Part shown: piece after piece, positions 10,486 to 59,115 of the stretch
How positions within the stretch are numbered: the first letter of the stretch is position 1
Layout of the letters: the number at the start of each line of letters is the position of its first letter
NCBI GenBank assembly: GCA_964488025.1
Contig: CAZATJ010000002.1
Location: 13,840 to 77,839 of the forward strand
DNA: 64,000 nucleotides
Origin: an uncultured Bdellovibrionales bacterium
GTDB lineage: Bacteria > Patescibacteriota > Minisyncoccia > Moranbacterales > UBA1568
Direction: 5' to 3'
The notes under the pieces: generated by a model
Database searches by the model: none
What the model was told of the DNA's origin: nothing
What the model saw: only the letters and a program-made list of their open reading frames with translations
Position numbers and translations under genes: made by a program

Positions 10486-10505
10486 GGCTCCTTGGGAGCC
10501 GGGGT

Positions 10506-11051: not shown

Positions 11052-11127
11052 TAGTCATTCGTTGGCTTGAAATAGGAAAAAGGAGGGATTTGTGGTACAG
11101 TAGAGCTGAAATCGAACTTGTTTTACT

Positions 11128-12057
11128 ATGCGGAAAAATCTGTGGACGTTAGGGAAAGTGGTCGTGACCTTAGCGCTAGTTTTTTGGCTGATCGAACGGG
11201 TGGATTGGGCGGGGGTGCGAACGGAATTGGCGGGGGTATCTTGGCTTTTTTTGGTGCTGTATGTGGTTTTCCAATTGACCGGGAACCTCATTTCGGCCAA
11301 AAAATGGCAGATTATCGCCTCATACAAGGAATTGCATTTTACCCTAAAGGAAGGGTTTTTCACCTATATGACGGGGGCGTTTATCAATAACTTCCTGCCT
11401 TCGACTATTGGGGGCGATACCTACCGGGGCTTGTGGCTCGCCAAACGCTCGGGAGCACGCGCTGCAGCCCTTTCCACCGTGGTCTTTGATCGATTCATCG
11501 GTTTGTGGACAACGGCCCTTCTAGCCCTTATTTTGAGCTTTACGCTGTGGGACTCTCTCAGGGAAAGTTTGCCGCTTTTGGTGACGCTACTGGTTCTGTT
11601 TGGGTTCCTTTTGGTTGATCTGGTGATTACCTTTCTGTACTGCCAGACATGGTTTCGGGAGTTCGTTTCACGAATCACTTTTCAGAAAGTGCGCCGATTG
11701 CTTCAAGAGATTATTTTTTACACGAAAAAAGACATGTGGCTTCGTACCAGTCTCTGGTCGAGCCTCTTTATTTTTGTCGGTATCGGTCTGTCTAACTACA
11801 TGTTGTTTCAGGCGCTGGGGAGCGGTGTCGCTTTCCTACCGTTTCTCTCAGCGATACTTTTGGTCGCGGTGGTTTCGAGTCTCCCGATATCGATCAACAA
11901 CATCGGCGTCAAGGAATGGGCCTACGTGGCCTTTTTCGGATTGATCGGGGTAAGCGTCGAGACCGCGGTGACCGCGGCGCTTCTTTCCCGTTTCATTCAG
12001 ATGATTCTTTCCTTTATTGCCGTGCCGCAGTATTTGAGAAAAGAAAGCGGAGAATAG
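11128..12057 (+). CDS. flippase-like / lysylphosphatidylglycerol-synthase TM-region family membrane protein
   Basis: 309 aa, about 8 TM helices, conserved NFLPSTIGGDTYRG block (PxxxGGD/ExxR) typical of PF03706/TIGR00374 proteins. These often accompany glycosyltransferases. Confidence 0.65.
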   Translation: MRKNLWTLGKVVVTLALVFWLIERVDWAGVRTELAGVSWLFLVLYVVFQLTGNLISAKKWQIIASYKELHFTLKEGFFTYMTGAFINNFLPSTIGGDTYRGLWLAKRSGARAAALSTVVFDRFIGLWTTALLALILSFTLWDSLRESLPLLVTLLVLFGFLLVDLVITFLYCQTWFREFVSRITFQKVRRLLQEIIFYTKKDMWLRTSLWSSLFIFVGIGLSNYMLFQALGSGVAFLPFLSAILLVAVVSSLPISINNIGVKEWAYVAFFGLIGVSVETAVTAALLSRFIQMILSFIAVPQYLRKESGE

Positions 12058-13917: not shown

Positions 13918-13922
13918 TGACG

Positions 13923-16193: not shown

Positions 16194-16305
16194 AGAGTTT
16201 GTTTCGTTACCAATCTTTGGAAGTATCAGTTACCTCTCAGGGTAACGGTTTTTAGATTTGTAACGGGTTTGCTTGGCGCTTAAAAGTAGCTTAGAATAGA
16301 AGAAA

Positions 16306-18171: not shown

Positions 18172-19698
18172 ATGCAACTGACATGGAAAAAAACTTGGAC
18201 GATACTGCTCGTCATCATCGTTCTTGGCACGGCGCTCCGACTGTATGATTTGGGGAATAATTCTTTCGTGGCCGACGAGTTTCTGGATATGAACTCGAGC
18301 TACGGGTATTTTAAGACGGGAGAGTGGAAAGCCTGGGACTTCAATTTCGGCAGAGAATCCGAGACGAATTTCAACGCCGCTCGCGATGAACGTGCTTTTA
18401 TCTACAAGTGGCAGGTAGCAGGACTCTTCCATCTTCTGCCGCCGACCGAGGCGACGGCTCGTTTGGTAAGCGTGTTCTGGGGGATGGTTTCTATTCTAGT
18501 CATGTTTTGGACCGGGTACTTCTATACGCGAAAGAAAACTGTCGGATTGCTTTCGGCATTTCTGTTTGCGGTGAGCGTTTCCGGGATTATCTTCGACCGG
18601 CGGCTCCGCATGTATGCCATGTTTTTTCCCCTTTATCTGTCTTTGACCACGGTTTTATTCGCTTTTTTCGAGTCGGAGTATCGTGGCAGGATCAATTTCT
18701 TACGGAAAATGTGGGAGCGTTTTGGACTGAACGGTCTGTATCTGCTCCCGCTTATCGTGCTTGCTCTTCTGAGCGCCTTGGTTCACGGATTATCACTTTC
18801 GGTCATTCCGGTTTTCGGGGTCTATGTATTGTGGATGGCGTTTGTTTTCTGGAGAAGGGAGGGGACCCTGAAGAATAAATACGCGGTTACGGTAGGTTTC
18901 GGACTGCTTGGCATCGCTGCCGCCGTCATATTCTTCCCCAGGTTTGTGCGATTGGGGCTGGGGAGTCTTGTTTGGTTCGATAATCACTACTCGTATTTTG
19001 GCTACGTCCTGCGTGATTTCGCTCATCCTCTGCTCGGAGTACTGATGGCCGGTTTCGGTAGCTATGTCTTGGGAAAAAAACTTGGCCAACCGAAAGAAGC
19101 ATTGTGGGTGACTCTTTCGGCGGCGGTGCCCTTGATGCTGGCTGTTTGGTTCTGGCGTCGCAATGCCGGACCGCAGTACATATTTTTCATCCAATCTTTT
19201 GTAATCCTTCTTGCCGCTGTCGGTGTCTATGGGATGTTTCGTTTGGTTCGGGAACATTTTCCGGAACATGGCCGGAAGGGTATTTTCGCATTCCTTCTGT
19301 TAGCCGGGCTGCTTCTTCCGAATTACGGCTATTTTTTGGAAGAAAACAATACCTACCATGAAACCTCTACCGGCGGCAATCCGAATTATCGCAAGGTGTT
19401 TGATTATTTCAAGAAGAACCAACAGCCGGGCGAGGTGCTTATTACCCGAAATTTCCGCAATTATTACTTCTCCGGAGCCAAAGTCCCGGTCTATGATTTT
19501 GGCGGTGAACTTTCAACGAAGAAGTTTTCCCTTGCCGAATTAGAGGTCATTATGGCGGAGTATTCCCATGGCTGGGTCATTGTCTCGACGAATGATTACG
19601 ATTATATTTCCCGTGATGCGGAAGTGTATTTCAAGAAAAATATGGAGCAGGTGAGCAATTCGCAGGTGCGTGGCGCGGTAGAAGTATATCGCTGGTGA
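18172..19698 (+). CDS. PMT_2/ArnT-like GT-C family membrane glycosyltransferase (paralog 4)
   Basis: 508 aa, polytopic. SFVADEFLDM DE-motif loop. Confidence 0.7.
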   Translation: MQLTWKKTWTILLVIIVLGTALRLYDLGNNSFVADEFLDMNSSYGYFKTGEWKAWDFNFGRESETNFNAARDERAFIYKWQVAGLFHLLPPTEATARLVSVFWGMVSILVMFWTGYFYTRKKTVGLLSAFLFAVSVSGIIFDRRLRMYAMFFPLYLSLTTVLFAFFESEYRGRINFLRKMWERFGLNGLYLLPLIVLALLSALVHGLSLSVIPVFGVYVLWMAFVFWRREGTLKNKYAVTVGFGLLGIAAAVIFFPRFVRLGLGSLVWFDNHYSYFGYVLRDFAHPLLGVLMAGFGSYVLGKKLGQPKEALWVTLSAAVPLMLAVWFWRRNAGPQYIFFIQSFVILLAAVGVYGMFRLVREHFPEHGRKGIFAFLLLAGLLLPNYGYFLEENNTYHETSTGGNPNYRKVFDYFKKNQQPGEVLITRNFRNYYFSGAKVPVYDFGGELSTKKFSLAELEVIMAEYSHGWVIVSTNDYDYISRDAEVYFKKNMEQVSNSQVRGAVEVYRW

Positions 19699-22358: not shown

Positions 22359-22983
22359 TCAAACGTTTAGTTTTCTTAAAATATCCTGAAAAATACTTTC
22401 TTTACTTTTATTTCCATCGATGACAGTCATATTCCAGGGGATGATTTTCGTTTTGAACAATTCCATCTTGGCGCGGAGGTAGTCGATACCCTGTTCGGGG
22501 GCGCGTTCGCGAGCCATGATGGTTTCCGGAGAGAGGTCAAAGTAGAGGGTGACATCGGCTCTGGGGGTATAACGCGAAAGAAAAATTATTCCCCAATGGA
22601 TCGGCCAGGAGCAAAAGCGGATATTTTTTGCCAGATAGGCCAGATTGATGATGGAATCAAAAAAAGAACGGTCAGAAAGAAGGTAGTCGTAGCCTTGTTT
22701 GCGCAGTGAACTTCGGAGAAAACAGAAACGCATCATATCGATGAGAAGAAATTTTTCTCGAAGGACAAGAGAAAGCCAAGAAGCTTTGGTAACGGCCTTT
22801 TCCTTACCGGGCTCGAAGGTGTCCTGCCTTTTGAAAAGCCGGGCAATCTTGTTGGCCAGGGAAAATTCGACCGCGTGAAAAGTGGTGGTTTTTCTTCCTT
22901 CCCGTTCCAGTTTCTCTTGAAGGAGCTTGAGTTGGGTGGATTTTCCACTGCCATCAACCCCTGAAAAAGTGATGAATTTCATG
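22359..22983 (-). CDS. tmk: thymidylate kinase-like P-loop kinase
   Basis: MKFITFSGVDGSGKSTQ P-loop and LLSDRSFFDSIINLAY (DRY/F..S..AY) block. The start is taken at the MKFITF ATG (22981-22983). Confidence 0.65.
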
Positions 22984-23017
22984 GAGAGGTTACTAAAAAT
23001 ACAGAAAAAACTCCCTT

Positions 23018-24412
23018 TTGGAACCTGCTTATAGTATAGCATTTTTCGCTCTTTTTTGTGCTATTCTTGGTTATATGGACTTTTTCAGACTGTTAAAGTA
23101 TTCTTTTTTCACGTTTCTTTTTCTACTGCCGCTGCAGACGGTTTTTTTGCTGCGCGAGCCGTTTGTTTTGGGGGAGAAGTGGCAGTATGGAACTATCGGG
23201 GTGTATGTCACTGATGTATTGTTGGTGGTCATGTTAGGCGTAGCCTTGTGTACCTGGTTGAGGAGTATAAAGTATAAAGTATCGAGTATAAAGTACGGGA
23301 GATCTGAAGCGGTACTGGTACTGTTTCTTTTGTGGGCGGGACTGTCGGTTGTGTGGGCGGGGGATCAAGTGTTGGCCTTCTCCTTTTTCATGAAATCACT
23401 CTTGGCGGCGGGTGTGTTCTTTTTGGCCCGATCGTTCGAGGAGGTGAGCGCGAAGAAAGTTATCCTGGTTCTTATGGCGGCTGGAATAATCCAGAGCGGT
23501 ATCGGAATAGGGCAGTTCTTGTTTCAACAATCAGTCGATTCCTCGATTCTCGGAACAAATGCCCACGAGGCCTGGCAAGCGGGCTCTTCCGTGCTTAAAA
23601 TCGACGGAGGGCCAGCCTCGCCGAGTCTAGGCGGGCGGTTTTTACGGGCTTATGGGACATTTCCTCATCCGAATATGCTGGGGGGATTCTTGGCTGTCAC
23701 ACTGGTATTCGGTATCGCGTACCAGGTATTATGCACGGCACGGCTGAAGAAAAACGAAAGAACACTCCTCCTTATTGGTTCAGTGATAGTCTTGCTTGGA
23801 TTGATCCTTACTTTTTCTCGTGTAGCTTGGTTGGGGTCAGGCTTTGGAATAGGGACATTGTTTGTATGGAGTTTTTTTTCAGGTGATACGCGAAAACTAC
23901 GGCCGTTGTTTTCGGGTATGTTCAGTAAAACCTTTTTAGTATTGATTGTGGCTGGATTAGTGTTTGTCACAGTGCTTCATGAACAAGTTTTCCCTCGTTT
24001 TGATGGAGCGACTATCAAACATGAAGGGTCGGTATCGGAACGGGTGCAATCTTTTCAGGATGCCGGTATGGTTATCGGTGAAGGAAATATACTGCTTGGC
24101 ACTGGTGTCGGAAATTTCACGGCAGAAGTCATGAGGCTGGAGCCGGAGCGTCCAGTATGGAGTATTCAGCCGGCGCACAATGTTTTTGTCCTGGTGTTTT
24201 CCGAGCTCGGTCTGGTAGGATTGCTGTTCTTCGTATTGTTTCTGTGGAGCGTGCTCCGAAACATGAAAAAACAAAGCGCGATATTCATTGTCGCGCTTTT
24301 CTCGTTACTTCCCATCCTTCTTCTCGACCACTGGCTGTGGACCTCTCACTTTGGACTTTTGCTTCTTTTTCTTCTCATCGGTCTTGCGATACGCCGAGAG
24401 AGGCAGTCATAA
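23018..24412 (+). CDS. O-antigen ligase/polymerase-like (Wzy_C-like) polytopic membrane protein
   Basis: 464 aa, about 11 TM helices with a central periplasmic loop. No unambiguous catalytic motif, so this is a family-level call. Confidence 0.4.
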   Translation: MEPAYSIAFFALFCAILGYMDFFRLLKYSFFTFLFLLPLQTVFLLREPFVLGEKWQYGTIGVYVTDVLLVVMLGVALCTWLRSIKYKVSSIKYGRSEAVLVLFLLWAGLSVVWAGDQVLAFSFFMKSLLAAGVFFLARSFEEVSAKKVILVLMAAGIIQSGIGIGQFLFQQSVDSSILGTNAHEAWQAGSSVLKIDGGPASPSLGGRFLRAYGTFPHPNMLGGFLAVTLVFGIAYQVLCTARLKKNERTLLLIGSVIVLLGLILTFSRVAWLGSGFGIGTLFVWSFFSGDTRKLRPLFSGMFSKTFLVLIVAGLVFVTVLHEQVFPRFDGATIKHEGSVSERVQSFQDAGMVIGEGNILLGTGVGNFTAEVMRLEPERPVWSIQPAHNVFVLVFSELGLVGLLFFVLFLWSVLRNMKKQSAIFIVALFSLLPILLLDHWLWTSHFGLLLLFLLIGLAIRRERQS

Positions 24413-24541: not shown

Positions 24542-26065
24542 CTAGTACATGATGACGGAAATGGGCTGGAGTTTGATGACCGGTTTGACGACGGAGTTTT
24601 CAATGACGCTTTCGATGACATCTTCGGCACGTTTGTAGTGCGAGGAATCCTGTTCGATGACCTTAGATGAACGGCCATTGTAGAGTTTGACGCCTTTTTC
24701 GGCGAGCTTCTCATCAAGTTCTGATTTGTTCTGAGGAACGACACTTTCAGTGGTTTTGGCGGCCTTGCCGGCGCCGTGATTGCAAGAATAGAAACTGGAA
24801 TCATTGCCATCCTGGCCGACGCACAGGTAGGCTTCGGTACTCATTGAGGTCGGGATGAAAGCCGGTTCGCCGGTGTCTTTGAAGGTAGGGTGGTCAGCCA
24901 TGCGGCTCGGACCATAGGCTCGGCTGGTGCCGTTCCGATGGACCCAGACATTTTTATTGTAGTGTTCTTCCTGAGAGACTAGGATATGGGGCATATCGTA
25001 GAGCAGGTCGGCTTCGACGAAGTGGCCCAGTACTTTTTCGGCTGTCTGGACGAAGTTATGGGTGATGGTGGCACGATTGGCGTGAGCGAAGTTAGAACAG
25101 GCATTGCGAGCGGCCATATAGAGCTTTCCGTCCTCACCGTCCCCGTCGAAAGTGATGAGTGGTTCTTTCTTACCGAAATCAGAAGCCCTGATTTTTTCAG
25201 CGATTTTTTTGATGGTTTTCTTATAGGGGGTGAACCAGAGGAACCGACCGAGATTCATGAGAATGGCCGTGGAGAAGTGCTCACGCTTCTTGGCGGTGAA
25301 CATGTACATGGTGTACTGGCCAAGAATACCCGAGCCGCAGTGAACCATGAGGATGTACTGGCCAAGGCGTAAGTTAAATTTGGCGGCTACTTCGGGGTCG
25401 ACTACCGCGGTCACCTTCATGAGATCGAGGAAGTGGTTGCCGGCGGCGCCGATGATACCGGCGCGGAATTGGGCGAAAAATAAAAAGAGTGGTGGAATAA
25501 TGTTTCGGATACCTTTGCGAGTGGGAGCTTCTTTGAAAAAATTCCCCCTGTCAATACTATTCTCGGCTTCATGCTTGGTTTTGATGTTCAGGTAGTCGAT
25601 GAGCGGCTGGATGCCCTGGGCACAGATATCAATGATGACGCGAAACGGGAGGACGGTACCGACGTATTTTTTGGTTGGAACGGTTCTGGTGGCTTCTTGG
25701 AAAATCCGGTCGATCTGTTCCGGGGTGACGTTCGTGTCGTCTAGGTTGAGACGGACGAGGCGCATACCGCAGGCCGGGTCGGAGTCGTTCACTTGGGGGA
25801 GAATGAATTTTTCGGAAGTGATGGTAGTGCCGGTGGCATTTTTGCGGCCGGGTTTCGAGTGAACATCGGCCATGGCGGCGACGTGATGGAATATGCAACC
25901 ATTTGCGGCAACGCTTTCGAGCTGTTGCATCGTCTCTTCTCCCGGCATGAGTTTTTCTCCGACATGAAAAATGACCGGCACATTCATTTTGTCGGTCCGG
26001 AATTCACTTTTATGATCCGAGAGCTTGGTGATATCGTTTTCGTACATAGAATGTTGGATGAACAT
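24542..26065 (-). CDS. rtcB: RNA-splicing ligase RtcB
   Basis: HVAAMADVHSKPGR (metal-binding), SCNHGAGK (nucleophile His motif), GNDSSFYSCNHGAG. 507 aa. Confidence 0.85.
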   Translation of the reverse strand: MFIQHSMYENDITKLSDHKSEFRTDKMNVPVIFHVGEKLMPGEETMQQLESVAANGCIFHHVAAMADVHSKPGRKNATGTTITSEKFILPQVNDSDPACGMRLVRLNLDDTNVTPEQIDRIFQEATRTVPTKKYVGTVLPFRVIIDICAQGIQPLIDYLNIKTKHEAENSIDRGNFFKEAPTRKGIRNIIPPLFLFFAQFRAGIIGAAGNHFLDLMKVTAVVDPEVAAKFNLRLGQYILMVHCGSGILGQYTMYMFTAKKREHFSTAILMNLGRFLWFTPYKKTIKKIAEKIRASDFGKKEPLITFDGDGEDGKLYMAARNACSNFAHANRATITHNFVQTAEKVLGHFVEADLLYDMPHILVSQEEHYNKNVWVHRNGTSRAYGPSRMADHPTFKDTGEPAFIPTSMSTEAYLCVGQDGNDSSFYSCNHGAGKAAKTTESVVPQNKSELDEKLAEKGVKLYNGRSSKVIEQDSSHYKRAEDVIESVIENSVVKPVIKLQPISVIMY

Positions 26066-27253: not shown

Positions 27254-27634
27254 TTATCTGTATATTTCCTTCTTCTCTGTTCTCGTGGTGACAATGACGG
27301 AAGTGCGGAGGCCTGGTTGGGGAACAATATTCGGGGTAATCATCTTGGTTTCGCCCGGAGCGACCGTTATCGAGTCGCGAACAGAAATAACATTGTCAGG
27401 AGTGACTTCGTAGGTAGCTTCATAGGAAAACTCACTTTGTTTCGTGTGATTTTCTACGATGAAGACGAGGCTGTTTGGATCTCCTGGCGCTTCAAAGGAA
27501 AGCGTCCACCAGTCTTTCCCCTGATTAGGATCGAGTTCACGCTTATTTTGCCAAAAAAGAAACAAGGCACTCACGGAAAAGAGGAGGAAAAAAAAGACGA
27601 CGAGTTTTTTTTCTGAGAGAGGGGGAAGATTCAT
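27254..27634 (-). CDS. small exported protein (signal-anchor + about 90-aa domain)
   Basis: N-terminal LVVFFFLLFSVSALFLF helix. It overlaps the upstream membrane protein gene by 4 nt. Confidence 0.4.
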   Translation of the reverse strand: MNLPPLSEKKLVVFFFLLFSVSALFLFWQNKRELDPNQGKDWWTLSFEAPGDPNSLVFIVENHTKQSEFSYEATYEVTPDNVISVRDSITVAPGETKMITPNIVPQPGLRTSVIVTTRTEKKEIYR

Positions 27635-29607
27635 TTGGTTCGGGCGTAAATATGAATAGTATCGGAGGCGTAGATGCGCGAGAAGTTATCTGATTTTTCG
27701 AAGGGAGTGATATCGAACCGCGGGTTGACGACCACCAGGTTGGTCCCGGTTTCAGTGTAGCATTTTTCACCGCGGGCGGTATTGGGGACGGAAATCATGA
27801 GGAGAGTGCACTGTTCCCGATTGGGATTGTCTTCATAGCGCTTGAAGAATCCTCGGGAAAGCGGATAGCTGTAATCACGGAGAAAAAAGAGTTTCATCCA
27901 GGCATCACCGACGATATAATTATGATCCTTAAGAACGATATCTTCGGCGGTAATACGAGCGGCGAGATATTGGGAGGCGGCAAAGGTTTGCAGAAGTGGG
28001 AGAGCCTTACTTTCCGGAAGAAGTGTCTGGCTATTGTCGTAAGAGCCGCTGCCCATGCCGAATACCAGAGCGGAGAAAGAGAGTAGTAACACAAGAATGC
28101 TCGGAAGAAAAAACTTCTTTTTTCCCTGAGAGAGGAGCGCGATGGACCCGACTAGGGCAAAAGCGGCGAGGAGGCCGAGAGGAAAAGAGAGATAGGCGCC
28201 GATACGATTGGAGGGGATGTTGATGAAGAGAAAACGGGGGAAGAGCGTCATGACGAGGAGGATGCCGCCCCATCCTAAGAGGAAGGCGCTTCCGTAACGG
28301 GTGCGGGTGGGGAGGAGCGCGATAAGGAACAGTCCGGCGAGACCGAGAGCCACCCGGGCTTCACCGGAAGAGAAAGTAATCTGGTAGAAGGAAAGTCCCG
28401 TGCGGGTGGTCTTGGTTGGCGTACCGAGAGCAGTACCGACTGCATGAGTCTCGATATAGGTTGGCATGGCAACGAAAAAAAAGAAGAAACAGGCGAAAAC
28501 TATCATGATGAACGGCTTGGGTTTGAGAAAGAGCGTGCTCCAGGAACGAAAGGTATAACCAAGAGTATCCCAGTGAAAAGCGAGGTATAAAAGGACGGAA
28601 GCTCCGAGAACGAAAAGGAGCATGAGCGTACTTAAGTGGTGGATGTAGGCGAGGGAAAAAGTCAGAAAAAATCCGAGAGCCAGAAAATCCGATCGTTTTT
28701 CCCGGAAGGCGCGGAGATAAGCGAGCAAGATGAGAGGGATAAAGAGGTTTCCGAGCGTGTTGCCGACGACGCCGCCGGAAACGAATTTTACCTGCGGGGA
28801 AGCAAGCGCGTAGAGAGGGCCGAAGAGAAAGAGGGTGGCGAGGGCGATGTTCTGGGGGTTGAAGACGGATTCCGACAAAAAAGAACTTCGAATATTTTCT
28901 GCGAACGAGCGAGCCAGAACAACGAGAGCCAGTAGTGATAAAAGATTCACCAAAAAGAGAAAGAGAATAGGAAAAGCCGAAAAGAAATCAAGACGGGAAA
29001 AAATATTGATGGCGGCGAAGGGGAGGTGTTCACCGATAATGAAATCGGCGATAGGTTCCGGTTCTGAGATGCGGTACGCGCCATTCGAGTCGGTAACGAT
29101 GTCCTCTTTGGCATAGACGGGAAGCTGTCCGCTTTCGGCCGTCAGTTTGGCCCAATACATATGATGCCCCAGGTCGGTTGAAGTCGGGAGAACGGCATGC
29201 GAGAGGTAGATAGTTTTTATGAGGAGCGTGAGGAAGAGGAGCGTAATGAAGAGCAAGCCTTGATTTCTGGAGAATCGCCAGACAGCTTTTGTCGGTTCTG
29301 ATGCTTCGACGGCGGTTTTGTTACGTAATTGTTTATGTAACAAAAGAGAAATGGCTGTGAGAAGAGTGACTGTGCCAAAGAGACCGAGAGCAATGGTCAC
29401 CGCGGTGAAAGGTATGCCCGCTTGACCCAGGAGAATTATGAGGAAGTTGAGCAGTCCCAGTCCGAGAGCGAACGACAGAATGACGGATTCGAAGGCCGAA
29501 AGCGATGTATTTTTTTTCAGGAAGACACGGAGAAAGAGAAACCCGGGTATGAAGAAAAGGACGCTGACGGTTATGAGGAAAACGATGGTATCGAGAAAAA
29601 ATGACAT
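27631..29607 (-). CDS. polytopic GT-C-like membrane protein (candidate lipid-linked sugar transferase)
   Basis: 658 aa with more than 12 TM helices and extracytoplasmic loops with DLGHHMYW. It sits next to a GT4 and a DPM1-like GT2. Confidence 0.4.
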   Translation of the reverse strand: MSFFLDTIVFLITVSVLFFIPGFLFLRVFLKKNTSLSAFESVILSFALGLGLLNFLIILLGQAGIPFTAVTIALGLFGTVTLLTAISLLLHKQLRNKTAVEASEPTKAVWRFSRNQGLLFITLLFLTLLIKTIYLSHAVLPTSTDLGHHMYWAKLTAESGQLPVYAKEDIVTDSNGAYRISEPEPIADFIIGEHLPFAAINIFSRLDFFSAFPILFLFLVNLLSLLALVVLARSFAENIRSSFLSESVFNPQNIALATLFLFGPLYALASPQVKFVSGGVVGNTLGNLFIPLILLAYLRAFREKRSDFLALGFFLTFSLAYIHHLSTLMLLFVLGASVLLYLAFHWDTLGYTFRSWSTLFLKPKPFIMIVFACFFFFFVAMPTYIETHAVGTALGTPTKTTRTGLSFYQITFSSGEARVALGLAGLFLIALLPTRTRYGSAFLLGWGGILLVMTLFPRFLFINIPSNRIGAYLSFPLGLLAAFALVGSIALLSQGKKKFFLPSILVLLLSFSALVFGMGSGSYDNSQTLLPESKALPLLQTFAASQYLAARITAEDIVLKDHNYIVGDAWMKLFFLRDYSYPLSRGFFKRYEDNPNREQCTLLMISVPNTARGEKCYTETGTNLVVVNPRFDITPFEKSDNFSRIYASDTIHIYARTK

Positions 29608-45816: not shown

Positions 45817-46629
45817 CTATGGTTCGAGAAGGAATATAGATTCCGGTGTCAGGTGGTTATTTCCGCTGAGCGCTTTCGCTGAGAAGATGTTGAGGTCGTA
45901 AAGTCTCACAGCGCCCCGGAAGGATACATATTCGGATTCTCCATAGACGATGACAATGGTAGCGGGAGGAATTTCTTCAAAGCGTTTTTCCAACTGATCA
46001 AGAGGGATGTTCTTTGATCCCTTGATATGTTTTTTCTGATAATTTTGTTCCGATTGAACATCAAGCAAAAAGACGTCTTCTTGAATGTTCAAAAACTCGG
46101 ATTGGGAGATGTAAGTAACCTTTGATTGGTCGATGAACGATTTCGGATCGCCGATAGAAATCGTTTGATTGCCTCCTTTTTTCCATCCCTCGAATCCTCC
46201 TTCGAGGAGGAATATTCGTGCTGATGATTTCTGTTTGAGTGAGTTCTCCACTATTTCGAGCATTTTTGTATCCTGAGAAGAGAAAATAACAACAACCAGC
46301 TCATCCTGTTCCGGAAGGAATGAATCGAGTGCCGAAGGTGAAAGAGAGAAGGAACGCGGGATGTGCTCGATTTTGAAGCTTTCCTGGTCTCTGACATCAA
46401 GAAGACGTATTTTCTCCCGATTGATTATTTTTTGACGAACAGCTTCAGCGGTTATCATGGGCACTTTCCCTGTTTCTTCCTTAGCCGCCTCAGAGGAAGC
46501 TCCGTCAGAACTTTGATTTTTCAAACTATTGTTCCAGAATTTCTGGAACAGGAAAACACCTCCCACTAAGAGGATGCATATTCCGCCAATAAGGACGGCT
46601 TTCGTGTCGCTGTTTCTTTTCGAAAACAT
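45817..46629 (-). CDS. membrane-anchored tandem rhodanese-like domain protein lacking catalytic Cys
   Basis: N-terminal TM helix. Two rhodanese-like modules (HIPRSF, HIKGSKNIP). The active-site positions hold Ser/Gly rather than Cys. Confidence 0.5.
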   Translation of the reverse strand: MFSKRNSDTKAVLIGGICILLVGGVFLFQKFWNNSLKNQSSDGASSEAAKEETGKVPMITAEAVRQKIINREKIRLLDVRDQESFKIEHIPRSFSLSPSALDSFLPEQDELVVVIFSSQDTKMLEIVENSLKQKSSARIFLLEGGFEGWKKGGNQTISIGDPKSFIDQSKVTYISQSEFLNIQEDVFLLDVQSEQNYQKKHIKGSKNIPLDQLEKRFEEIPPATIVIVYGESEYVSFRGAVRLYDLNIFSAKALSGNNHLTPESIFLLEP

Positions 46630-46656: not shown

Positions 46657-47637
46657 TTACTCGAGGAAACTTCCAATCAGGCTGCTATTGCCGCGGAGAA
46701 ACTCATCGATAGGCATGGGTGATTTCCCTTCGAGTTGGATTTCTTCGAGGAATATGATTCCGGTAGTTGTCTGAACTCCGATTTTTTCCCCGATTTCGAA
46801 TACTTTCCCCAGTGGTTGACTTACCCGGGTGTTATATTTCTGACAGGAAAGAGTGATGAGTTTCATGCGGATCAGTTCACCATTTTTTCTCCAGTAGGTA
46901 AAAACACCTGGCCAGGGCGAGAGTGCCCGATAGCGGTTGTAGATGCTTTCGGCATCATCGGTCCAGATGATATGACCATCCTGCCGTTCTATCATTTGGC
47001 AGAGCGTCGCTTCTTTTTCTTCTTGTTTGATAGGAGTAATCTGACGCTTCACCCAGAGCGGTAAAGTTTCGAGGAGGAGCGTGGTCCCGGTCGCGACGAG
47101 TTTTTCCGTCAGTGTCAGGGTAGTGTCATCAGGAGCGATAGGTACGGGCACTTGCTTTAATATGTCACCCGTATCCATACCTTGGTCCATAAGCATGATG
47201 GTAACACCGCTCATTTTTTCTCCTGCCAGAATAGCATTTTGGATGGGGGCGGCTCCGCGCCACTTCGGAAGGAGTGAGGGGTGAAAGTTGACGCAGCCGA
47301 AGCCGGGGATGTCGAGAACGGCCTGAGGAAGAATCTTCCCATAAGCAGCGACTACGATCAGATCCGGTTTCCAGGCACGAATGTGTTCTATGGCGAATGA
47401 GTCGATTTTTTCCGGCTGTATGATCGGGAGTTTCTGTTCCAGCGCGGCCGTTTTGACGGGATTTTCCGCAATCTCTTTTTTGCGTCCAGCCGGACTGTCT
47501 CTTTTGGTCACAACGCCGACGATATTATACTGCCGCGTGATCAGAGCGGAAAGCAAAGTGGCGGCGAGTGATGGTGTTCCCATGAAGACGACACGAATCT
47601 TCGGGGTTTCATTCGATAGCGGATTGATCGGTGACAT
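46657..47637 (-). CDS. fmt: methionyl-tRNA formyltransferase
   Basis: RVVFMGTP, NFHPSLLPKWRGAAPI blocks. Confidence 0.9.
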   Translation of the reverse strand: MSPINPLSNETPKIRVVFMGTPSLAATLLSALITRQYNIVGVVTKRDSPAGRKKEIAENPVKTAALEQKLPIIQPEKIDSFAIEHIRAWKPDLIVVAAYGKILPQAVLDIPGFGCVNFHPSLLPKWRGAAPIQNAILAGEKMSGVTIMLMDQGMDTGDILKQVPVPIAPDDTTLTLTEKLVATGTTLLLETLPLWVKRQITPIKQEEKEATLCQMIERQDGHIIWTDDAESIYNRYRALSPWPGVFTYWRKNGELIRMKLITLSCQKYNTRVSQPLGKVFEIGEKIGVQTTTGIIFLEEIQLEGKSPMPIDEFLRGNSSLIGSFLE

Positions 47638-47659: not shown

Positions 47660-48130
47660 TCAGACCATTTTACTCTGCTTGCGAAAACGGTTGATGATAA
47701 GGATACCGTCGAGATGATCTACTTCGTGCTGAATCACGGTGGCGAGAAATCCGGTCGCTCGGAGTTTTTTGGGAAGACCCTTCTCATTGATATAGCGCAC
47801 GGTGACTGTTTCGGAGCGAAGAATGGGAAGAAATTCTCCTGGCAAGCTGAGACAGCCTTCTTCTGAGATAATTTTTTCTTGGGAGGATGAAGTGATACTC
47901 GGGTTAATAAGATAATATATCTGGTTATCCACTTCGGCAACAGCCAGACGCAAGGAAATGCCGATTTGTGGAGCTGCTAATCCGACGCCTCGTTCTTTGT
48001 GCATCGTTTTGACCATCTTCGGCAAAAGAGTTTGTATTTCCGAAGAGAGCGGGTCCGTGACGAGGGCAGTTTTAGTGAGGAGAATTTCTTTCATTTCTCC
48101 GATGACAAGCGGTAACATACGAAAAATCAC
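47660..48130 (-). CDS. def: peptide deformylase
   Basis: GVGLAAPQIG, EGCLSLPG, HEVDHLDG motifs. Confidence 0.9.
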   Translation of the reverse strand: MIFRMLPLVIGEMKEILLTKTALVTDPLSSEIQTLLPKMVKTMHKERGVGLAAPQIGISLRLAVAEVDNQIYYLINPSITSSSQEKIISEEGCLSLPGEFLPILRSETVTVRYINEKGLPKKLRATGFLATVIQHEVDHLDGILIINRFRKQSKMV

Positions 48131-48133
48131 TTA

Positions 48134-50101
48134 CTATTTCAGAGTTATAGGATCGACATCAATGATACAATCTTTTCCGTTTTTTATCAGAATGGAAACA
48201 ATTTCTTCTGAAAGTAATAGGTCAGAAGCTGGCAGACGAATCAGGAGATCGCATTCGAAGAGGGACTGCTTCTTCAGGAGACGGATCGCGCCCGGGGGTC
48301 GTAAACGACAGGTATTCGGAATTACTTCTTTGAGGGCAGCGTACCTCTCCGTTGCTTTTTTTATGACTTCCTTTTCTGTTTTTCCCTGACAAGTAAATGT
48401 GATGAGACGCGCGAAAGGAGGATAAAAAAGTTCCTTTCTCTCCGCCAAGATAGAGGCCAGGAGTTCCGCGCTTCCCATGGTGGAGATTCTTTGGAAGAAG
48501 GCGCTTTCTGGATGAAAGGTCTGAAGCAGGACCTGCCCAAATCGGCCCCTTTTCTTTACCTGACGCGCTGCCCGAGAAAGGTCTTGGAAAAGCCTTTCGT
48601 CGGCTCTGAAATCAGGGAAAAGAAGAAGGCTGTCTGCGTCAATCATAGCAATGAGCGACAGTTTGGGCAAGGGAGGATCCTTAAGAGCCATCTGCGTCCC
48701 GACCAGAACATCAATCTCTCCCGCAAGCCCTTTGAGGGAGAGTATTTCTGCTGTTTTCACGGTACGGAGGGTAGTACTGTCCAGTCGAGATATTTTTTTC
48801 TCGGGGAAAAGTCGAAGTACTTCTCGCTCTACCTTTTCTGTACCGAATCCGATATGACGGAAGGCAAGGTGTCCGCAATTGGGGCAGTTCGGAAAAAGTG
48901 AGGTCTTATAACCGCACGCGGAGCAGCGGAAATATCCTTCCCGAGTCGTTCCAAGCGGGTGCTGACAATTTTTGCAGCGGATGGTATTTTTACAAGCATC
49001 GCAGACGGAAAAGGCGTTCATGCCCTGGCGGTTAATATAGAGGAGCGCTTGATTACCCTCTGTAAGCGTTTCTCGGATAGCTTGGACAAGTGCCTCGGAA
49101 AGCGGTGAAAAATTTTTCCGGTAGCGTTCAAGCTTGAGATTGATGATCGTAAGGGCATTTCCGAGAGGGAGATGCTTCACGATAGGCCTGAGGGGAAGTA
49201 GCTTTTTCTCCTTAATAAGGAAAAGGCTTTCCGTGCTCGGTGTGCCAGAAGAGAGAATGAGTTTGGCTTGGTGAAGCGATGCCAGCATCGAAGCGACGCG
49301 TTTTCCATGGTAACGAGGGCTCATGTCCCATTGTTTGTAGCTTTCATCTTGTTCCTCGGTGACGATAATGGCTCCGAGATTGTAAAACGGAGCGAAGAGC
49401 CCCTGACGAGTAGCAATGATGACAGATGCCTCACCTCCGCGAATGCGTTCCCAAGCGCTAAAGAACGCCCCAGAGGAGAGCTTGCTGTGGAGTATGGCTA
49501 GTTTCTTTTTTTCGAAGAAAGACCCGAGGTACGCCTCCAGGGAGAAAACAAGGGTGATTTCTGGGACAATGATAAGTATCTGCTGTTTTCCTCGGAGACA
49601 TTGCTGCGCGACGAGGTTCCAAAGTTTTTTGGGATCATCAAGGAGCGAGGTGTCGATATAGGTAGGAATTTTTGCCTGAATGAGAATTTCGAGCATTTTC
49701 TGTTCGTCCTCGGTGGCTCGTGGGAAAGGCTTCTTTTTCTTTGAAGACCCCGTTTCTTTTTTCAACCGTTCGTTGGAAGCTTTTGGAAGGAAATGTTTCA
49801 GTGTCTTGCCGAGCGGCGTGAAGTATTCACGACTCACCGTTTCCGCCAGAGCGCACTGCTTTTCGGTCAGAAAACTTTCCCTTACGACGTGAGAAATAAG
49901 TTTCATCCAAGATGGTTTGTTTCCAGGAAGCGCTTGACAGTCAAAAACGACCCCTTCCACCGTCTGTTTTCCGAAGGAAATAGAAACCAGCGAGCCCTTT
50001 CGTACCGAGATGGAGCTGGCGTAGGTAAAATAGGGTGATCGGCTGAGGGGTATGATGACGAGCGGAGCCACCTCAAGACGATAGAGTTGCTTGTTTCCCA
50101 T
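48134..50101 (-). CDS. priA: primosomal protein N' (PriA) homolog with degenerate ATPase motifs
   Basis: Collinear with PriA (3'-DNA-binding N-terminus, Cys4 zinc region CDACKNTIRCKNC...CSACGY...CPNCGH, VLVGTQM, VLLQTFHPE). Walker A GSGKT is replaced by DDPKKL and DEEHD by TEEQD. Confidence 0.7.
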   Translation of the reverse strand: MGNKQLYRLEVAPLVIIPLSRSPYFTYASSISVRKGSLVSISFGKQTVEGVVFDCQALPGNKPSWMKLISHVVRESFLTEKQCALAETVSREYFTPLGKTLKHFLPKASNERLKKETGSSKKKKPFPRATEDEQKMLEILIQAKIPTYIDTSLLDDPKKLWNLVAQQCLRGKQQILIIVPEITLVFSLEAYLGSFFEKKKLAILHSKLSSGAFFSAWERIRGGEASVIIATRQGLFAPFYNLGAIIVTEEQDESYKQWDMSPRYHGKRVASMLASLHQAKLILSSGTPSTESLFLIKEKKLLPLRPIVKHLPLGNALTIINLKLERYRKNFSPLSEALVQAIRETLTEGNQALLYINRQGMNAFSVCDACKNTIRCKNCQHPLGTTREGYFRCSACGYKTSLFPNCPNCGHLAFRHIGFGTEKVEREVLRLFPEKKISRLDSTTLRTVKTAEILSLKGLAGEIDVLVGTQMALKDPPLPKLSLIAMIDADSLLLFPDFRADERLFQDLSRAARQVKKRGRFGQVLLQTFHPESAFFQRISTMGSAELLASILAERKELFYPPFARLITFTCQGKTEKEVIKKATERYAALKEVIPNTCRLRPPGAIRLLKKQSLFECDLLIRLPASDLLLSEEIVSILIKNGKDCIIDVDPITLK

Positions 50102-50159
50102 ATACCCTCATTCTAGCAAGAAATTGATTTTTTGGCTCTTTTCAGCTACGCTTCACAGT

Positions 50160-50708
50160 ATGAACAAAACCAGACGACTTTTTATCGGTTTGCCGCTTTC
50201 TGACGCTTTGCGCAAGCGGCTTGCCTTGGAAATGGAGGCGCTTCCGGGAAGCGCTGTGCTTCCTGTTGCCAAGGATAATCTGCAGGTCACGCTCATGTTT
50301 CTTGGATTCGTCCATGATGAGGATGTTCCGGAAATCTGCGAGCGAGTCAGGGAAGTTGCTGAGGCAACAGACTCTTTTGAGTTGTCTTTTACTGGGATGA
50401 AATTGGTAGAAAGCAAAGAAAATCCGAAGATGATCTCTTTGATAGGGGAGGCGAGCGATGGACTTCGGCACTTACGTGAGGAAATGGAAAAGGCATTTTC
50501 AGCTTTTGTGACGGAAAGAAAAGCTTATAGTCCCAACGTGACTCTGGCAAAAATAAAAAAGAACCAGTGGCTAGCGCTCGATCCGGAGCCAGTGCTCAAG
50601 GAAAAACTTTCTATTTTGGAGGGAATCGATACGGTCGTCGTTTACGAAAGTCTATCTCTGGAAGGAAAGCGCCGCTACGAACCAATTACGACATTTTCGC
50701 TCCTTTAA
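50160..50708 (+). CDS. LigT/ThpR-like 2H phosphoesterase fold protein with both HxT/S histidines substituted
   Basis: RRLFIGLPL...DNLQVTLMFLG and PNVTLAKIK align with the two H-x-T/S motifs of 2',5' RNA ligase, but His is replaced by Gln and Asn. Confidence 0.5.
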   Translation: MNKTRRLFIGLPLSDALRKRLALEMEALPGSAVLPVAKDNLQVTLMFLGFVHDEDVPEICERVREVAEATDSFELSFTGMKLVESKENPKMISLIGEASDGLRHLREEMEKAFSAFVTERKAYSPNVTLAKIKKNQWLALDPEPVLKEKLSILEGIDTVVVYESLSLEGKRRYEPITTFSLL

Positions 50709-50745
50709 ACATCACTGGAGCAGAACATTTCAACGATACTTTACT

Positions 50746-51474
50746 ATGGAATTGTTTGGTGTCACTATCAGTCAATCCTCTCCCGACGAAGTTTTGGCAC
50801 AAGTCGGGAGTTTTTTAAATGAACCGAAGTTTCATCGTATCGCGACGGTCAATCCGGAATTTCTCGTGTTAGCTGAAAAGAATCCGGAATTCAAACAGGC
50901 GCTCCTTGCTGCTGATCTGTGCGTGGCCGACGGGATTGGTATCGTGCTCGCTGGATGCTTTCAAAGGAAAAGAATCACTCGTTTTCCCGGTGTTGATCTG
51001 CTTCACGAAATTCTCACTCTGGCCGAGCGCGATGGTTACGAGGTGTCCCTTGCTATTCGTAAAGATGGCCTGTCTTCGTACGAAGAGATTCGAGCGGCTC
51101 TTTTGAAAAAATATCCACGCCTTGTAGTCACGGGTAAAGACTATACTGTGCAATCTATCACTTCGCCGTCACTTATCCCTTATCCTGCATCACCTATCAT
51201 TATTTGTAATTTCGGTGCGCCCGATCAAGAACTCTTTCTCGAAAGTATCAGGAATAATTCCGGTGAGGTGCGGTTAGTTCTGGGTGTCGGCGGAGCATTC
51301 GACTACCTGACTGGCAAACAAAAACGCGCCCCCAAGTGGCTGCGTGCGATAGGCCTCGAATGGCTCTGGCGTCTCACCCTCCAGCCCAGACGATGGAAGC
51401 GCATCTGGAACGCAGTGGTTGTTTTTCCTTGGCTCGTCTTTCGTTCTTGGCAGAATGCTAGAAAAAGGTTATAA
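50746..51474 (+). CDS. WecG/TagA/CpsF family (GT26) glycosyltransferase
   Basis: IATVNPEFLV, CVADGIGIV, FLGAPDQE-like NFGAPDQELF, GVGGAFDYLTGKQKRAPKWLR blocks. Confidence 0.8.
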   Translation: MELFGVTISQSSPDEVLAQVGSFLNEPKFHRIATVNPEFLVLAEKNPEFKQALLAADLCVADGIGIVLAGCFQRKRITRFPGVDLLHEILTLAERDGYEVSLAIRKDGLSSYEEIRAALLKKYPRLVVTGKDYTVQSITSPSLIPYPASPIIICNFGAPDQELFLESIRNNSGEVRLVLGVGGAFDYLTGKQKRAPKWLRAIGLEWLWRLTLQPRRWKRIWNAVVVFPWLVFRSWQNARKRL

Positions 51475-56888: not shown

Positions 56889-57728
56889 CTACTGGAGCGA
56901 CACCTGGTCTTTGGCGATAGCCACTGTGTTGCGGCCGGCAGCCTTGGCCCCGTACATGGCCATGTCGCTCCGGGTACGCGCCTCCTCGATGGCCTGGTTC
57001 GGATCGTCGGGAAATTGGTCCATGTGGACTCGTGCTACCCCGATGCTCACGGTGACGGTGAGGCCTTTGATGTGAAAATCGTGAGCTTCGACACTGCGTC
57101 TGATCCGTTCGGCCGTCGTCTCCGCTTCTTTGGTCGAAGCATTACTCAGGACGACGACAAATTCATCGCCACCGAAGCGAGCCGGGATGTCATCCTCACG
57201 AACCGCCCCCTTGATGATCTGGGCAATCACGGTGAGTACATTGTCGCCGACGGCATGTCCGTATCTATCGTTCACCGATTTGAACCGGTCTACGTCGATG
57301 AAGAGGATGCTGGTTTCTGGCCAGGCGATCTTCGGGCTGTGAGTCTCCTCACGAACCCGGGCGATGGTTCGGCCCACTTCGTGGGCGTGGCGATGAAAGG
57401 CCCGCTTCAAAGTATTCGGTCGGAGGAGCCCGGTCAGGTCATCGCGCCCCAGTTCCTCGCGGAGTTTTTCCAACTCCTCACTGTGGATTTTTTTGAGCGC
57501 GACCATCCATTCCATCACGTTTGTGGCCTGTTCCTGCAGAAACTGCATCGACTGAGCCATTGACTGAACTATCTCTTCGGATGCCGTAAGCATCTCAAAA
57601 AGATCCTTGTTTCTGGCGCGGAGCAATTGGAGCTCTAGCTCTTTCGGGCAGAGCTCCGGCCAGAGCTTCTCAACGAGTTGTTGCACCGCTTGGCCAATCT
57701 TCTGGCGCAGTGAGACTACTTTCTTCAT
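56889..57728 (-). CDS. GGDEF-domain diguanylate cyclase with N-terminal coiled coil
   Basis: RFGGDEF active-site motif, DVDRFKSVND, RIRRSV inhibitory-site-like RxxD. The start is taken at MKKVVSL (AAAGGGGA RBS). Confidence 0.8.
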   Translation of the reverse strand: MKKVVSLRQKIGQAVQQLVEKLWPELCPKELELQLLRARNKDLFEMLTASEEIVQSMAQSMQFLQEQATNVMEWMVALKKIHSEELEKLREELGRDDLTGLLRPNTLKRAFHRHAHEVGRTIARVREETHSPKIAWPETSILFIDVDRFKSVNDRYGHAVGDNVLTVIAQIIKGAVREDDIPARFGGDEFVVVLSNASTKEAETTAERIRRSVEAHDFHIKGLTVTVSIGVARVHMDQFPDDPNQAIEEARTRSDMAMYGAKAAGRNTVAIAKDQVSLQ

Positions 57729-57957
57729 GGAAATCCCCTTTCTTGGGAGGTTGGATTTTGGACAAGTATTTTCAAGGTACGCTGTCCATGATAGCACAAA
57801 ATATACTTTTTGTCAACCCTGCTTGGCAGGGAATTCTCTGCTACAATGAAAACATGATGAGTGATGCTAGATAGAGAAACAGCATGACTTGCCTCGATTT
57901 TTCTTAGGTATTTCATATCATTTATCCTGTATCACTTATCTCTTATTATCTTCGAAT

Positions 57958-59115
57958 ATGCGCATCTCTTATTCCAGTGTCGGGACGTACCAGACATGTC
58001 CGCTCAAGTATAAATATCAGCACGTTGACCGTATTCCGGAACCAAAATCCAAGGAGGCGGTATTTGGGACGCTCATTCATGCGGTCATGAAGTATATCCA
58101 CACCCCGAGCCTTCTCTCCCCTTCTGTTGATCAAGCGCTCGACTATTTCGCTAAGGGCTGGAACAGTGAAGTGTACGAGGACGAGATGGAAGAGCGCGCC
58201 GCTTTCTCGCAGGGCGTGACCATCATCCAGAATTACCTGGCGCGCAACAAACCCAATGATTTCACTATCGTCGACCTGGAAAGTCGCTTCGCGATCGAAA
58301 TCGGTGATGAGGAGCATGGCAAGCACATCGTCTCTGGTATTATCGACCGAATTGACAAGACAGCCGATGGTTATGAGATTATTGATTACAAGACGACCCG
58401 CAAAATGCCGTCGCAGGACAAAGTCGATAATGATCTCCAGCTTTCCATTTATCTCAAGGCATTTCTCGCTCGCTATCCCAAGGAAGTTGAGCATCTCGAT
58501 AAGATCACGGTCAGTCTCTACTACCTGAAGCATGGCGTGAAACTTTCAAGCGCGCGCACCTTGGAGCAGTTGGAGCGGGTCGATCAGACCTTTCTCGACG
58601 TCATCAAATCGATTGAAGAGGCAAAATTCGAACCCATCCTCTCGCCACTGTGCGATTGGTGCGGGTATCAGAAAATTTGCCCTCTGTGGAAGCATAAATT
58701 TACCGAGACTCACCGGCTCGAAACCGAAGAGGTTAAGACTGCCATCAGCGAATATCTCGATCTGAAAGGTAAGATGAGCGAAGAAAAACAGCACTTGGGA
58801 AAATTGCAGGCACTGATTCTCGAGTATATGGAGCAGGAGGGCGTGGACCGGGTCTTTGACGAACAGGGCATCATCGGAAAGTCGCTTCGCAAGACCTACA
58901 AATACGATGAAGAAAAATTACGAGCTATCCTGGAACCGCTTGATAAGTGGGAATCGATTTTGAAAGTAGACGGCATCGCGCTTCGCACCATCCTCGCTAC
59001 TCTCCCCTCCTCCCTTCAGGAATCGGCTGAAAAAGCGAAAATGCTCGACAAAGAAAGCGTCAGCCTTTCGGTCAAGAAAAACAAAATCGAAGTGGATGAT
59101 GACTTGTCACTTTAA
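57958..59115 (+). CDS. PD-(D/E)XK nuclease superfamily protein, Cas4/RecB-like with Cys4 cluster
   Basis: N-terminal YQTCPLKY Cys, IVDLE / IDRID / EIIDYKT nuclease motifs, C-terminal CDWCGYQKICP (three Cys). Confidence 0.65.
   Translation: MRISYSSVGTYQTCPLKYKYQHVDRIPEPKSKEAVFGTLIHAVMKYIHTPSLLSPSVDQALDYFAKGWNSEVYEDEMEERAAFSQGVTIIQNYLARNKPNDFTIVDLESRFAIEIGDEEHGKHIVSGIIDRIDKTADGYEIIDYKTTRKMPSQDKVDNDLQLSIYLKAFLARYPKEVEHLDKITVSLYYLKHGVKLSSARTLEQLERVDQTFLDVIKSIEEAKFEPILSPLCDWCGYQKICPLWKHKFTETHRLETEEVKTAISEYLDLKGKMSEEKQHLGKLQALILEYMEQEGVDRVFDEQGIIGKSLRKTYKYDEEKLRAILEPLDKWESILKVDGIALRTILATLPSSLQESAEKAKMLDKESVSLSVKKNKIEVDDDLSL

Follow-up and report, generated by a model that had tools for sequence, protein, structure and literature searches.

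An ATPase-motif-less PriA of Moranbacteria as a candidate ATP-independent scaffold for replication restart

Results

The DNA analyzed here, called the window below, is a stretch of 64,000 nucleotides from an uncultured bacterium deposited under the name Bdellovibrionales (GenBank assembly GCA_964488025.1, contig CAZATJ010000002.1, positions 13,840 to 77,839), and the gene in question is a priA ortholog located on its minus strand at 48134..50101. The open reading frame (ORF) starts with ATG and encodes 655 amino acids, from which the ATPase motifs of PriA are missing. The TIGR00595 profile (PriA / primosomal protein N') scores it at 344 bits against a curated cutoff of 230.35, with a match that opens at profile position 18, just past the Walker A segment, while PF17764, the profile of the PriA 3' DNA-binding domain (3'BD), matches residues 15–106 (E=1.7e-13, 50.6 bits against a cutoff of 22.7). 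Sub-threshold Pfam matches were found to the PriA C-terminal domain (CTD), zinc ribbons and the DEAD helicase domain. A phmmer search of PDB sequences returned PriA chains only, at E~1e-65 and with alignments that begin at query residue ~165, and the identity of the query to canonical PriA from Escherichia coli or Klebsiella pneumoniae is 22–26%. An AlphaFold2 model computed from an 86-sequence alignment reached a mean predicted local distance difference test score (pLDDT) of 90.7 and a predicted template modeling (TM) score of 0.90, and the top Foldseek matches to it in the PDB are all PriA (8fak_H, an E. coli PriA chain, TM score 0.74; 6dcr_A, 0.71/0.73; 4nl4, 0.71). PriA chains span TM scores of 0.62–0.74 and the next folds, Mfd and others, do not exceed 0.44; the PriA matches at 0.70–0.74 cover ~650–750 aligned columns and are full-length. 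Judged by its sequence and modeled fold, the product is an ortholog of PriA, but the label of a PriA helicase does not suit it.

In an alignment of E. coli K-12 PriA (NC_000913), the query and 119 homologs, the superfamily 2 nucleotide-binding motifs I (GxxxxGKT), II (DExH) and VI (QxxGRxxR) proved to be absent from the query at the aligned positions. The former Walker A motif (motif I), DTSLLDDPKKLW (residues 150–161; 49619..49654), aligns to E. coli G224–Y234 such that GVTGSGKTEVY is replaced without indels by TSLLDDPKKLW; the segment reads DTSLLDDPKK, contains zero glycine and has neither Lys nor Thr in register. In motif II, which lies together with the aromatic-rich loop (ARL) YKQWDMSPRY at 49298..49366, DEEHD has become TEEQD, with T248 in place of the Walker B Asp and EEQD kept; among 116 degenerate homologs the column of E. 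coli D320 holds T in 50% and has an entropy of 1.81 bits. In the former motif VI, RAARQVKKRGR (48542..48574), QVAGRAGR has changed to RAARQVKK, and neither the glycine nor either of the arginine fingers of QxxGRxxR survives (G583 to R, R584 to Q and R587 to K). These lesions had been noticed in a preceding sequence-only reading of this DNA, and all of the strings quoted there were recovered: LLDDPKKLWNLV (residues 153–164), TEEQD (248–252) and SRAARQ (509–514) pair without indels with GVTGSGKTEVYL, DEEHD and AGRAGR of E. coli PriA. The model places the former P-loop as a loop of residues 151–156 between strand 147–150 and helix 157–170 at pLDDT above 90. Because the loop sits there with confidence, the RecA topology is kept despite the lack of glycine, and retention of the RecA fold is borne out by the β1-loop-α1 unit at this position as well as by the overall scores (pLDDT 90.7; TM scores of 0.71–0.74).

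A frameshift that hides the P-loop was rejected, since no G....GK[ST] pattern exists in any reading frame of 48100–50150; the two in-frame GKT tripeptides of the gene are located outside motif I, one in the 3'BD and one in the CTD. Alignment error was rejected as well, as motifs I, II and VI align to E. coli PriA column for column. Six contigs, drawn from NCBI, ENA and Logan assemblies, carry the identical protein with the same neighbors, and the same lesions recur in ~115 relatives, so that the P-loop loss claimed from the letters alone stands.

The other parts of the protein, all encoded on the minus strand, retain the features by which PriA contacts DNA. The 3'BD (residues 7–106; 49784..50083; PF17764) carries G44 and K67 at the positions of G37 and K61 in the 3'-end pocket of E. 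coli PriA, K67 being invariant and G44 at least 90% conserved in the clade, and near the pocket Y27 is invariant and F25 at least 90% conserved. Where E. coli D17/Y18 fall in the query is uncertain by 1–2 positions: HMMER and MAFFT pair D17 with Y24, and an F-T-Y/F-D-Y register is equally plausible. A linker with one helix (residues 107–146; 49664..49783) replaces the winged-helix (WH) domain and corresponds to an alignment gap at ~110–190 of E. coli PriA. In other words, the ~75-residue WH domain is missing and 40 residues join the 3'BD to the helicase core, with the lowest pLDDT block of the model at 111–120 in this linker. The collinearity with PriA that the sequence-only reading had asserted along with homology is, therefore, only partial. 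RecA-like lobe 1 (residues 147–310; 49172..49663), with the β/α succession of strand 147–150, helix 157–170, strand 174–178 and so on to strand 280–285, corresponds to helicase domain 1 (HD1) of PriA. It contains the DNA-contacting motif Ia, VPEITLV (49547..49567), whose V, P and E are conserved at 98–100% in the 116 degenerate homologs, motif Ib, ATRQGLF (49394..49414; T-R-Q-G-L-F at 93–100%), the ARL with invariant Y255, K256, Q257, P262 and Y264, and a partly kept motif III region, SSGTPSTE (49229..49252; GSATPALE in E. coli), in which S285, T287 and P288 are conserved at 94%, 83% and 91%, respectively. RecA-like lobe 2 (residues 311–561; 48419..49171), delimited by secondary structure and aligned to HD2 of PriA, bears motif IV, YINRQGM (49019..49039; R358 95%, Q359 91%, G360 100%), and motif V, GTQMALKDPPLP (48665..48700; G468 and T469 100%, Q 94%, M 93%, K474 98%, L478 100%). 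The cysteine-rich region (CRR; 48851..49012) is inserted in this lobe and holds eight cysteines, 367, 370, 376, 379, 393, 396, 406 and 409, of which seven are invariant in the clade; their spacing of 3,6,3,14,3,10,3 compares with 3,6,3,15,3,10,3 in E. coli. The region corresponds to two zinc sites, not to the single Cys4 site that had been read there. The CTD (residues 562–655; 48137..48418) is confidently modeled with a β-α-β arrangement and lies inside the structural match to full-length PriA, and PF18074 matches it below its cutoff (E=2e-4; 22.6 bits against 26.9). The WH domain is absent from all Moranbacteria PriAs examined, motif-intact ones included, indicating that its loss predates the ATPase loss and is a lineage trait separate from the change into a pseudo-helicase.

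The nearest relatives of the query are labeled Candidatus Moranbacteria or Moraniibacteriota. Degenerate motifs occur in ~115 of the 119 best homologs, at identities from 66% down to ~40%; four proteins at 38–39% identity (P0114, P0115, P0117 and P0118) keep FGPASSGKTEVY, VDEEQD and QAAGRMAR. GTDB species-representative genomes were also scanned with patterns from the most conserved alignment stretches, YKQW[DN]MSP and TRQ[GA]LFAPF, which gave 80 Moraniibacteriota loci from 80 different assemblies, one PriA each. The PriA is degenerate in 75 of these species genomes, where several sub-types can be recognized, and the P-loop is kept in five (loci L038, L040, L043, L058 and L077). Four of the five have all three motifs; L043, whose P-loop is present and motif VI decayed, looks transitional. 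Degenerate and P-loop-bearing PriAs occupy the same priA-def-fmt-rhodanese locus, and this shared syntenic slot indicates that the two forms are orthologs, not paralogs. Trees were built by neighbor-joining (NJ) on Kimura distances, which is no substitute for maximum-likelihood (ML) inference with site-heterogeneous models. In the NJ tree computed without the columns of motifs I, II and VI, the proteins with a P-loop branch off as a basal grade and the degenerate ones make up a single clade, and one parsimony change was sufficient in 23 of 30 bootstraps. The motif loss, anticipated to be perhaps clade-wide, is indeed so in the genomes sampled, and the data are consistent with one old, ancestral loss in Moraniibacteriota. 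With syntenic, motif-intact orthologs basal to the degenerate clade, the query is best regarded as a descendant of an active PriA helicase.

A second PriA was found neither in the window, where a PriA hidden Markov model run on 447 stop-to-stop ORFs matched the priA ORF only, nor in the ±10-kb flanks of the 80 loci, and none of the 80 assemblies yielded more than one locus. The gene is probably the organism's only PriA ortholog. The priA ORF is full-length in 79 of the 80 species genomes. The sole split case among the loci is L076:9974-11909 (JBBCGM010000007.1, Ca. Moraniibacteriota CoA_maxb_bin.113), where PriA is divided between the overlapping ORFs 9974–11131 and 11064–11909, which is either a long-read assembly frameshift or a real pseudogene. 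Dozens of GTDB representatives titled "uncultured Bdellovibrionales bacterium" (among them the CAY*/CAZ* records L004-L007, L009-L013, L019, L020, L027, L035 and L037-L039) hold Moranbacteria-type priA-def-fmt-rhodanese loci with PriAs 34–62% identical to the query, and these titles look like mislabels.

Nei-Gojobori dN/dS ratios of ten close pairs of degenerate genes were 0.06–0.18, apart from one pair with dS=0.03 that gives 0.43, and the ratio for the intact pair L038/L040 was 0.115. Degenerate priA is under purifying selection and is hence no pseudogene. Per-position entropy over the 116 degenerate sequences averages 1.60 bits for the whole protein. It lies above this mean in the former motif I (1.9–3.5), at the Walker B Asp (1.8) and in the former motif VI (2.3–3.6 bits, with gaps), and falls to 0–0.5 bits in motifs Ia (VPE), Ib (TRQGLF), EEQD, the ARL (YKQW..SPRY), IV and V (GTQM..K). 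The contrast shows that selection has freed the nucleotide site while keeping the DNA-binding and scaffold surfaces.

Downstream of priA on the same strand lie def for peptide deformylase (47660..48130; PF01327, E=1.8e-42), 3 nt away, fmt for methionyl-tRNA formyltransferase (46657..47637; PF00551 and PF02911) and a gene for a rhodanese-domain protein (45817..46629; PF00581, E=5.9e-21), with which the conserved same-strand cluster ends. The def-fmt-priA neighborhood that had been recognized from the sequence is thus real, and its order needs correction to priA, def, fmt and rhodanese as read along the minus strand. def directly follows priA in L005 and L082 and is conserved in most related loci; fmt lies downstream of priA in intact and degenerate loci alike, and the rhodanese gene is present in nearly all of them. 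Upstream and divergent are genes for a LigT-like phosphoesterase and a WecG-family glycosyltransferase, and gltX. On the strand opposite priA, the longest LigT-like ORF (50091–50708, plus strand, TTG start) runs over the priA start codon with an overlap of 11 nt. This is probably no true overlap, since on the identical ENA contig, L082, the gene is called from a later start that gives 182 amino acids.

Envelope and glycan genes dominate the window. A long region at 6104–44147 encodes two UDP-glucose/GDP-mannose dehydrogenases, at least eight GT1/GT2/GT4 glycosyltransferases, two Wzy_C O-antigen-ligase-like proteins, a MurJ/Wzx-like flippase, a LytR-CpsA-Psr protein and, at 12064–18153, three consecutive PMT-like membrane mannosyltransferase homologs. 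ORFs 606–2117, 2124–4322, 18172–19698 and 27631–29607 (503, 732, 508 and 658 amino acids) have no Pfam match at E≤1e-5. Among plausible genes of the window, Walker A occurs once, in ORF 22359–23042 (minus strand, 227 amino acids), which matches thymidylate kinase over its N-terminal P-loop part only (residues 27–78, GVDGSGKS); the other match, at 50531–50815, falls in an overlapping alternative-frame ORF. Genes for an RtcB RNA ligase (24542–26065, minus strand), a GGDEF diguanylate cyclase (56889–57797, minus strand) and a stand-alone PD-(D/E)XK nuclease (57889–59115, plus strand, 408 amino acids; PF12705, E=9e-39) are without obvious link to priA. An Rfam scan of 1–64000 gave zero gathering-level matches, from which we take tRNA, rRNA and riboswitches to be absent from the window and an RNA element not to be involved. 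GC skew is positive to ~58 kb and about zero or slightly negative at 60–64 kb, where the GC content is ~0.40.

Motor loss was also noticed beyond Moraniibacteriota. When the 150 best 50%-identity cluster representatives were considered, ~70 of the 161 aligned full-length proteins were without Walker A. Searches seeded with two such proteins led to a degenerate group labeled Parcubacteria or Patescibacteria (P0282, P0292, P0300 and P0304). The nearest intact relatives of the Parcubacteria-labeled group are of the classical GVTGSGKT / DEEHD / QVAGRAGR flavor, and a P0157-like degenerate group adjoins intact proteins of the GPASSGKT type; the taxa of these groups outside Moranbacteria rest on few source labels. 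A broad NJ tree that included the trait columns (~9 changes) was used as a lead only, and conclusions were drawn from trees without the columns of motifs I, II and VI. The combined tree of this kind needed 5–9 state changes in 50 of 50 bootstraps, and the clade descending from the common ancestor of the two degenerate groups, Moranbacteria and Parcubacteria, took in intact PriAs every time, a separation against which long-branch attraction would bias the tree.

Outside the clade of the query, Walker A and motif VI are both lost in further short PriA homologs, namely in the Parcubacteria/Patescibacteria-labeled proteins P0183, P0278-P0283, P0286, P0288-P0293, P0297, P0298, P0300, P0303 and P0304, and likewise in P0157, P0394-P0398, P0419, P0422, P0424, P0427-P0431 and P0465 ("Ca. 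Azambacteria"). P0483 of the insect endosymbiont "Candidatus Dasytiphilus stammeri" (464-kb contig) has LLTYFTKLEKTEVYL for the P-loop and QVARYVSFKK for motif VI, keeps DEEHD and is an apparent further pseudo-helicase in a reduced genome.

Discussion

It seems very probable that the PriA of Moranbacteria is ATPase-dead. That it serves as an ATP-independent, structure-specific scaffold which recognizes forks and D-loops for the reloading of the replicative helicase is a larger claim, and we think it likely. The suggestion that the protein has become a pseudo-helicase gains support from the clade-wide loss, the retained fold, the failure to find a second PriA and a dN/dS of ~0.1. Loss of ATP binding and hydrolysis, of translocation and of unwinding would follow from the motif loss, and the near-invariance of the DNA-contacting motifs and the ARL gives indirect support to a persistence of fork binding and partner recruitment. 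The aromatic-rich loop of E. coli PriA crosslinks to the fork junction (PMC5175346). In Moranbacteria PriA, the catalytically dead RecA-like lobes might, through motifs Ia, Ib, IV and V and together with this loop, grip the junction as well as the lagging strand's single-stranded template. When E. coli PriA binds a fork whose lagging arm is single-stranded DNA (ssDNA), cryo-electron microscopy shows the CRR to pivot, so that it surrounds the ssDNA and uncovers a partner-docking surface, and a duplex lagging arm needs prior unwinding before docking (PMC10175261; PMC13594977). The two-zinc CRR and the CTD of the query might thus close round the lagging-strand ssDNA and offer a dock for the next factor, which would likely be DnaB, recruited directly or with a loader, in line with what is reported for Deinococcus radiodurans PriA; the most economical guess of a partner would be DnaB, alone or together with DciA. 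Because the motor is gone, Moranbacteria PriA should act only on forks whose lagging arm is already single-stranded.

Several points weigh against a role in replication restart of this kind. Among possible cognate partners, no gene for dnaB, dciA, ssb, priB or another primosome component was found in the 64-kb window, and a view of this size possibly leaves room for a distant second PriA that is proficient as a helicase. The literature on E. coli PriA includes the proposal of a second, weak nucleotide site (review PMC5778457). In addition, E249-E250-Q251-D252 (49343–49354) is 96–98% conserved in the degenerate clade, where its catalytic role should be obsolete. The conserved EEQD may connect structurally to the neighboring ARL, or it may have gained a new structural or interaction role there.

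Some of these points lend themselves to other explanations. Although the PriA fold and DNA binding are kept, the restart role itself might have been abandoned, the protein now being, for instance, a factor that binds forks or D-loops in recombination or repair, or having a role tied to def and fmt. The strong conservation of EEQD without obvious reason, the missing WH domain and the absence of a known primosome partner from the window are all compatible with such a new function. We nevertheless regard it as unlikely: the elements by which E. coli PriA recognizes forks (3'BD, ARL, motifs Ia/Ib/IV/V, CRR and CTD) are kept and under the strongest constraint, the linkage to def and fmt is common to motif-intact orthologs and hence not special to the degenerate form, and the WH loss is older than the ATPase loss. 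Even less probable is that a motif-intact PriA elsewhere supplies the helicase and that the priA described here is a specialized or regulatory paralog. Only 64 kb of the genome was seen, and the scan patterns would miss a classical GTRSALF-type PriA. The same patterns caught the intact GPASSGKT-type and the degenerate types, on contigs of 486–826 kb as well, with no second copy in the window or around the 80 loci and none of the 80 assemblies carrying two, and the occupation of one priA-def-fmt-rhodanese slot by intact and degenerate forms speaks for orthology.

An active ATPase or helicase that works through a non-canonical nucleotide site seems very improbable. K158 and K159 lie near the old P-loop position, EEQD is conserved and the second site proposed in E. 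coli PriA (PMC5778457) would provide a precedent, but the loop has lost its glycines, neither Lys nor Thr of Walker A is left, the Asp of Walker B and the two arginines of motif VI are missing too, the former ATP positions vary above the protein average, which is a misfit with a conserved alternative site, and K230R alone abolishes the activity of E. coli PriA. As for a decaying pseudogene or an artifact of sequencing, assembly or alignment, the split PriA of L076 is the one observation in its favor; we consider this explanation refuted by the intact ORF in 79 of 80 genomes, dN/dS of ~0.1, the six independent contigs, the lack of a P-loop in any frame and the high-confidence model. Fork recognition and helicase reloading by a motorless PriA remains the reading we prefer.

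The loss of the PriA motor looks recurrent in reduced genomes, and proper ML phylogenetics and taxon sampling are needed before this can be claimed. Separate losses are proposed for most Moraniibacteriota, the Parcubacteria-labeled lineages, further Patescibacteria groups, "Ca. Azambacteria" and "Ca. Dasytiphilus". Whether the conversion of PriA into an ATP-independent adaptor for fork recognition is a recurrent, convergent outcome in bacteria with reduced genomes, rather than a Deinococcus oddity, is to us an evenly balanced question. If it is, restart without a helicase, possibly by direct recruitment of DnaB through PriA, would be a common bacterial mode, and the natural variants would define the minimal parts of PriA as the 3'BD, motifs Ia/Ib/IV/V, the ARL, the CRR and the CTD.

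Comparison with known PriAs shows where the query departs from them. Canonical PriA (4NL4, 6DGD and 8FAK) has the same order of 3'BD, HD1, HD2 with the two-zinc CRR and CTD, and both keep motifs Ia, Ib, IV and V and the ARL, whereas the query is without the WH domain and without functional motifs I, II (Asp) and VI. The WH-deletion construct of E. coli PriA, 6DCR, resembles the natural Moranbacteria architecture in having the 3'BD almost directly on the helicase core, but it is engineered and ATPase-proficient. The motif-intact short PriAs from basal Moraniibacteriota and related Patescibacteria (P0114, P0115, L038, L040, L058 and L077), which are ~670 amino acids long, WH-less, encoded at the same locus and 34–39% identical to the query, keep FGPASSGKTEVY, VDEEQD and QxxGRxxR and are, unlike the query, presumably active helicases. 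The E. coli K230R, K230A and K230D proteins are PriAs without ATPase, helicase or translocase activity, as is proposed for the query, and show in the laboratory that the proposed mechanism can work in principle: in priA300 (K230R), ATPase and helicase activities are lost, yet primosomes assemble and cells are near wild type, and PriAs of this type support restart via PriA-PriB and are defective in the PriA-PriC route, for which, as for some other processes, helicase activity is required, and in Mu transposition (PMC5778457). These alleles are, however, engineered single substitutions in a protein with a WH domain and with PriB, DnaT and DnaC as partners, while the query is a natural protein that has had long to adapt.

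The closest natural counterpart is the PriA of D. radiodurans, whose pseudohelicase nature was demonstrated in 2015 (Lopper, Boone & Morrow, PMC4504706). Its GKT carries a K-to-R change and its Walker B motif is poor; it has neither ATPase nor helicase activity, and binds ssDNA and forks at near-E. coli affinity as well as DnaB directly (PMC4504706). Like the Deinococcus-Thermus pseudohelicase, the query is an ortholog of PriA that is kept in the genome with its Walker A and B motifs degenerate, and it is proposed to belong to the same functional category. According to the 2015 paper, however, the Deinococcus-Thermus lesion is mainly GKT to GRT plus the poor Walker B, whereas in the query the whole P-loop, the Walker B Asp and the motif VI arginines have been replaced, and the lack of the WH domain sets the query further apart from D. 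radiodurans PriA. The existence of syntenic, motif-intact orthologs inside Moraniibacteriota argues for an origin independent of Deinococcus, an argument made without a joint tree. A review of 2017 treats Deinococcus-Thermus PriA as the single exception (PMC5778457), and in the full-text literature we found no report of a motorless PriA in Moranbacteria, Parcubacteria, Patescibacteria or the candidate phyla radiation. The pipeline names "replication restart helicase PriA" and "primosomal protein N'" overstate the likely activity of such proteins. The category of PriA pseudohelicases is already known, and the query is an independently evolved case with a more complete erasure on a WH-less chassis. 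This second and fuller motor loss, typical of most of a large Patescibacteria lineage and maintained under strong purifying selection, amounts to a natural mutational scan in which ATP-site residues drift freely and DNA-contact and scaffold residues are frozen, and it supports the view that the indispensable functions of PriA are fork recognition and primosome nucleation, not unwinding.

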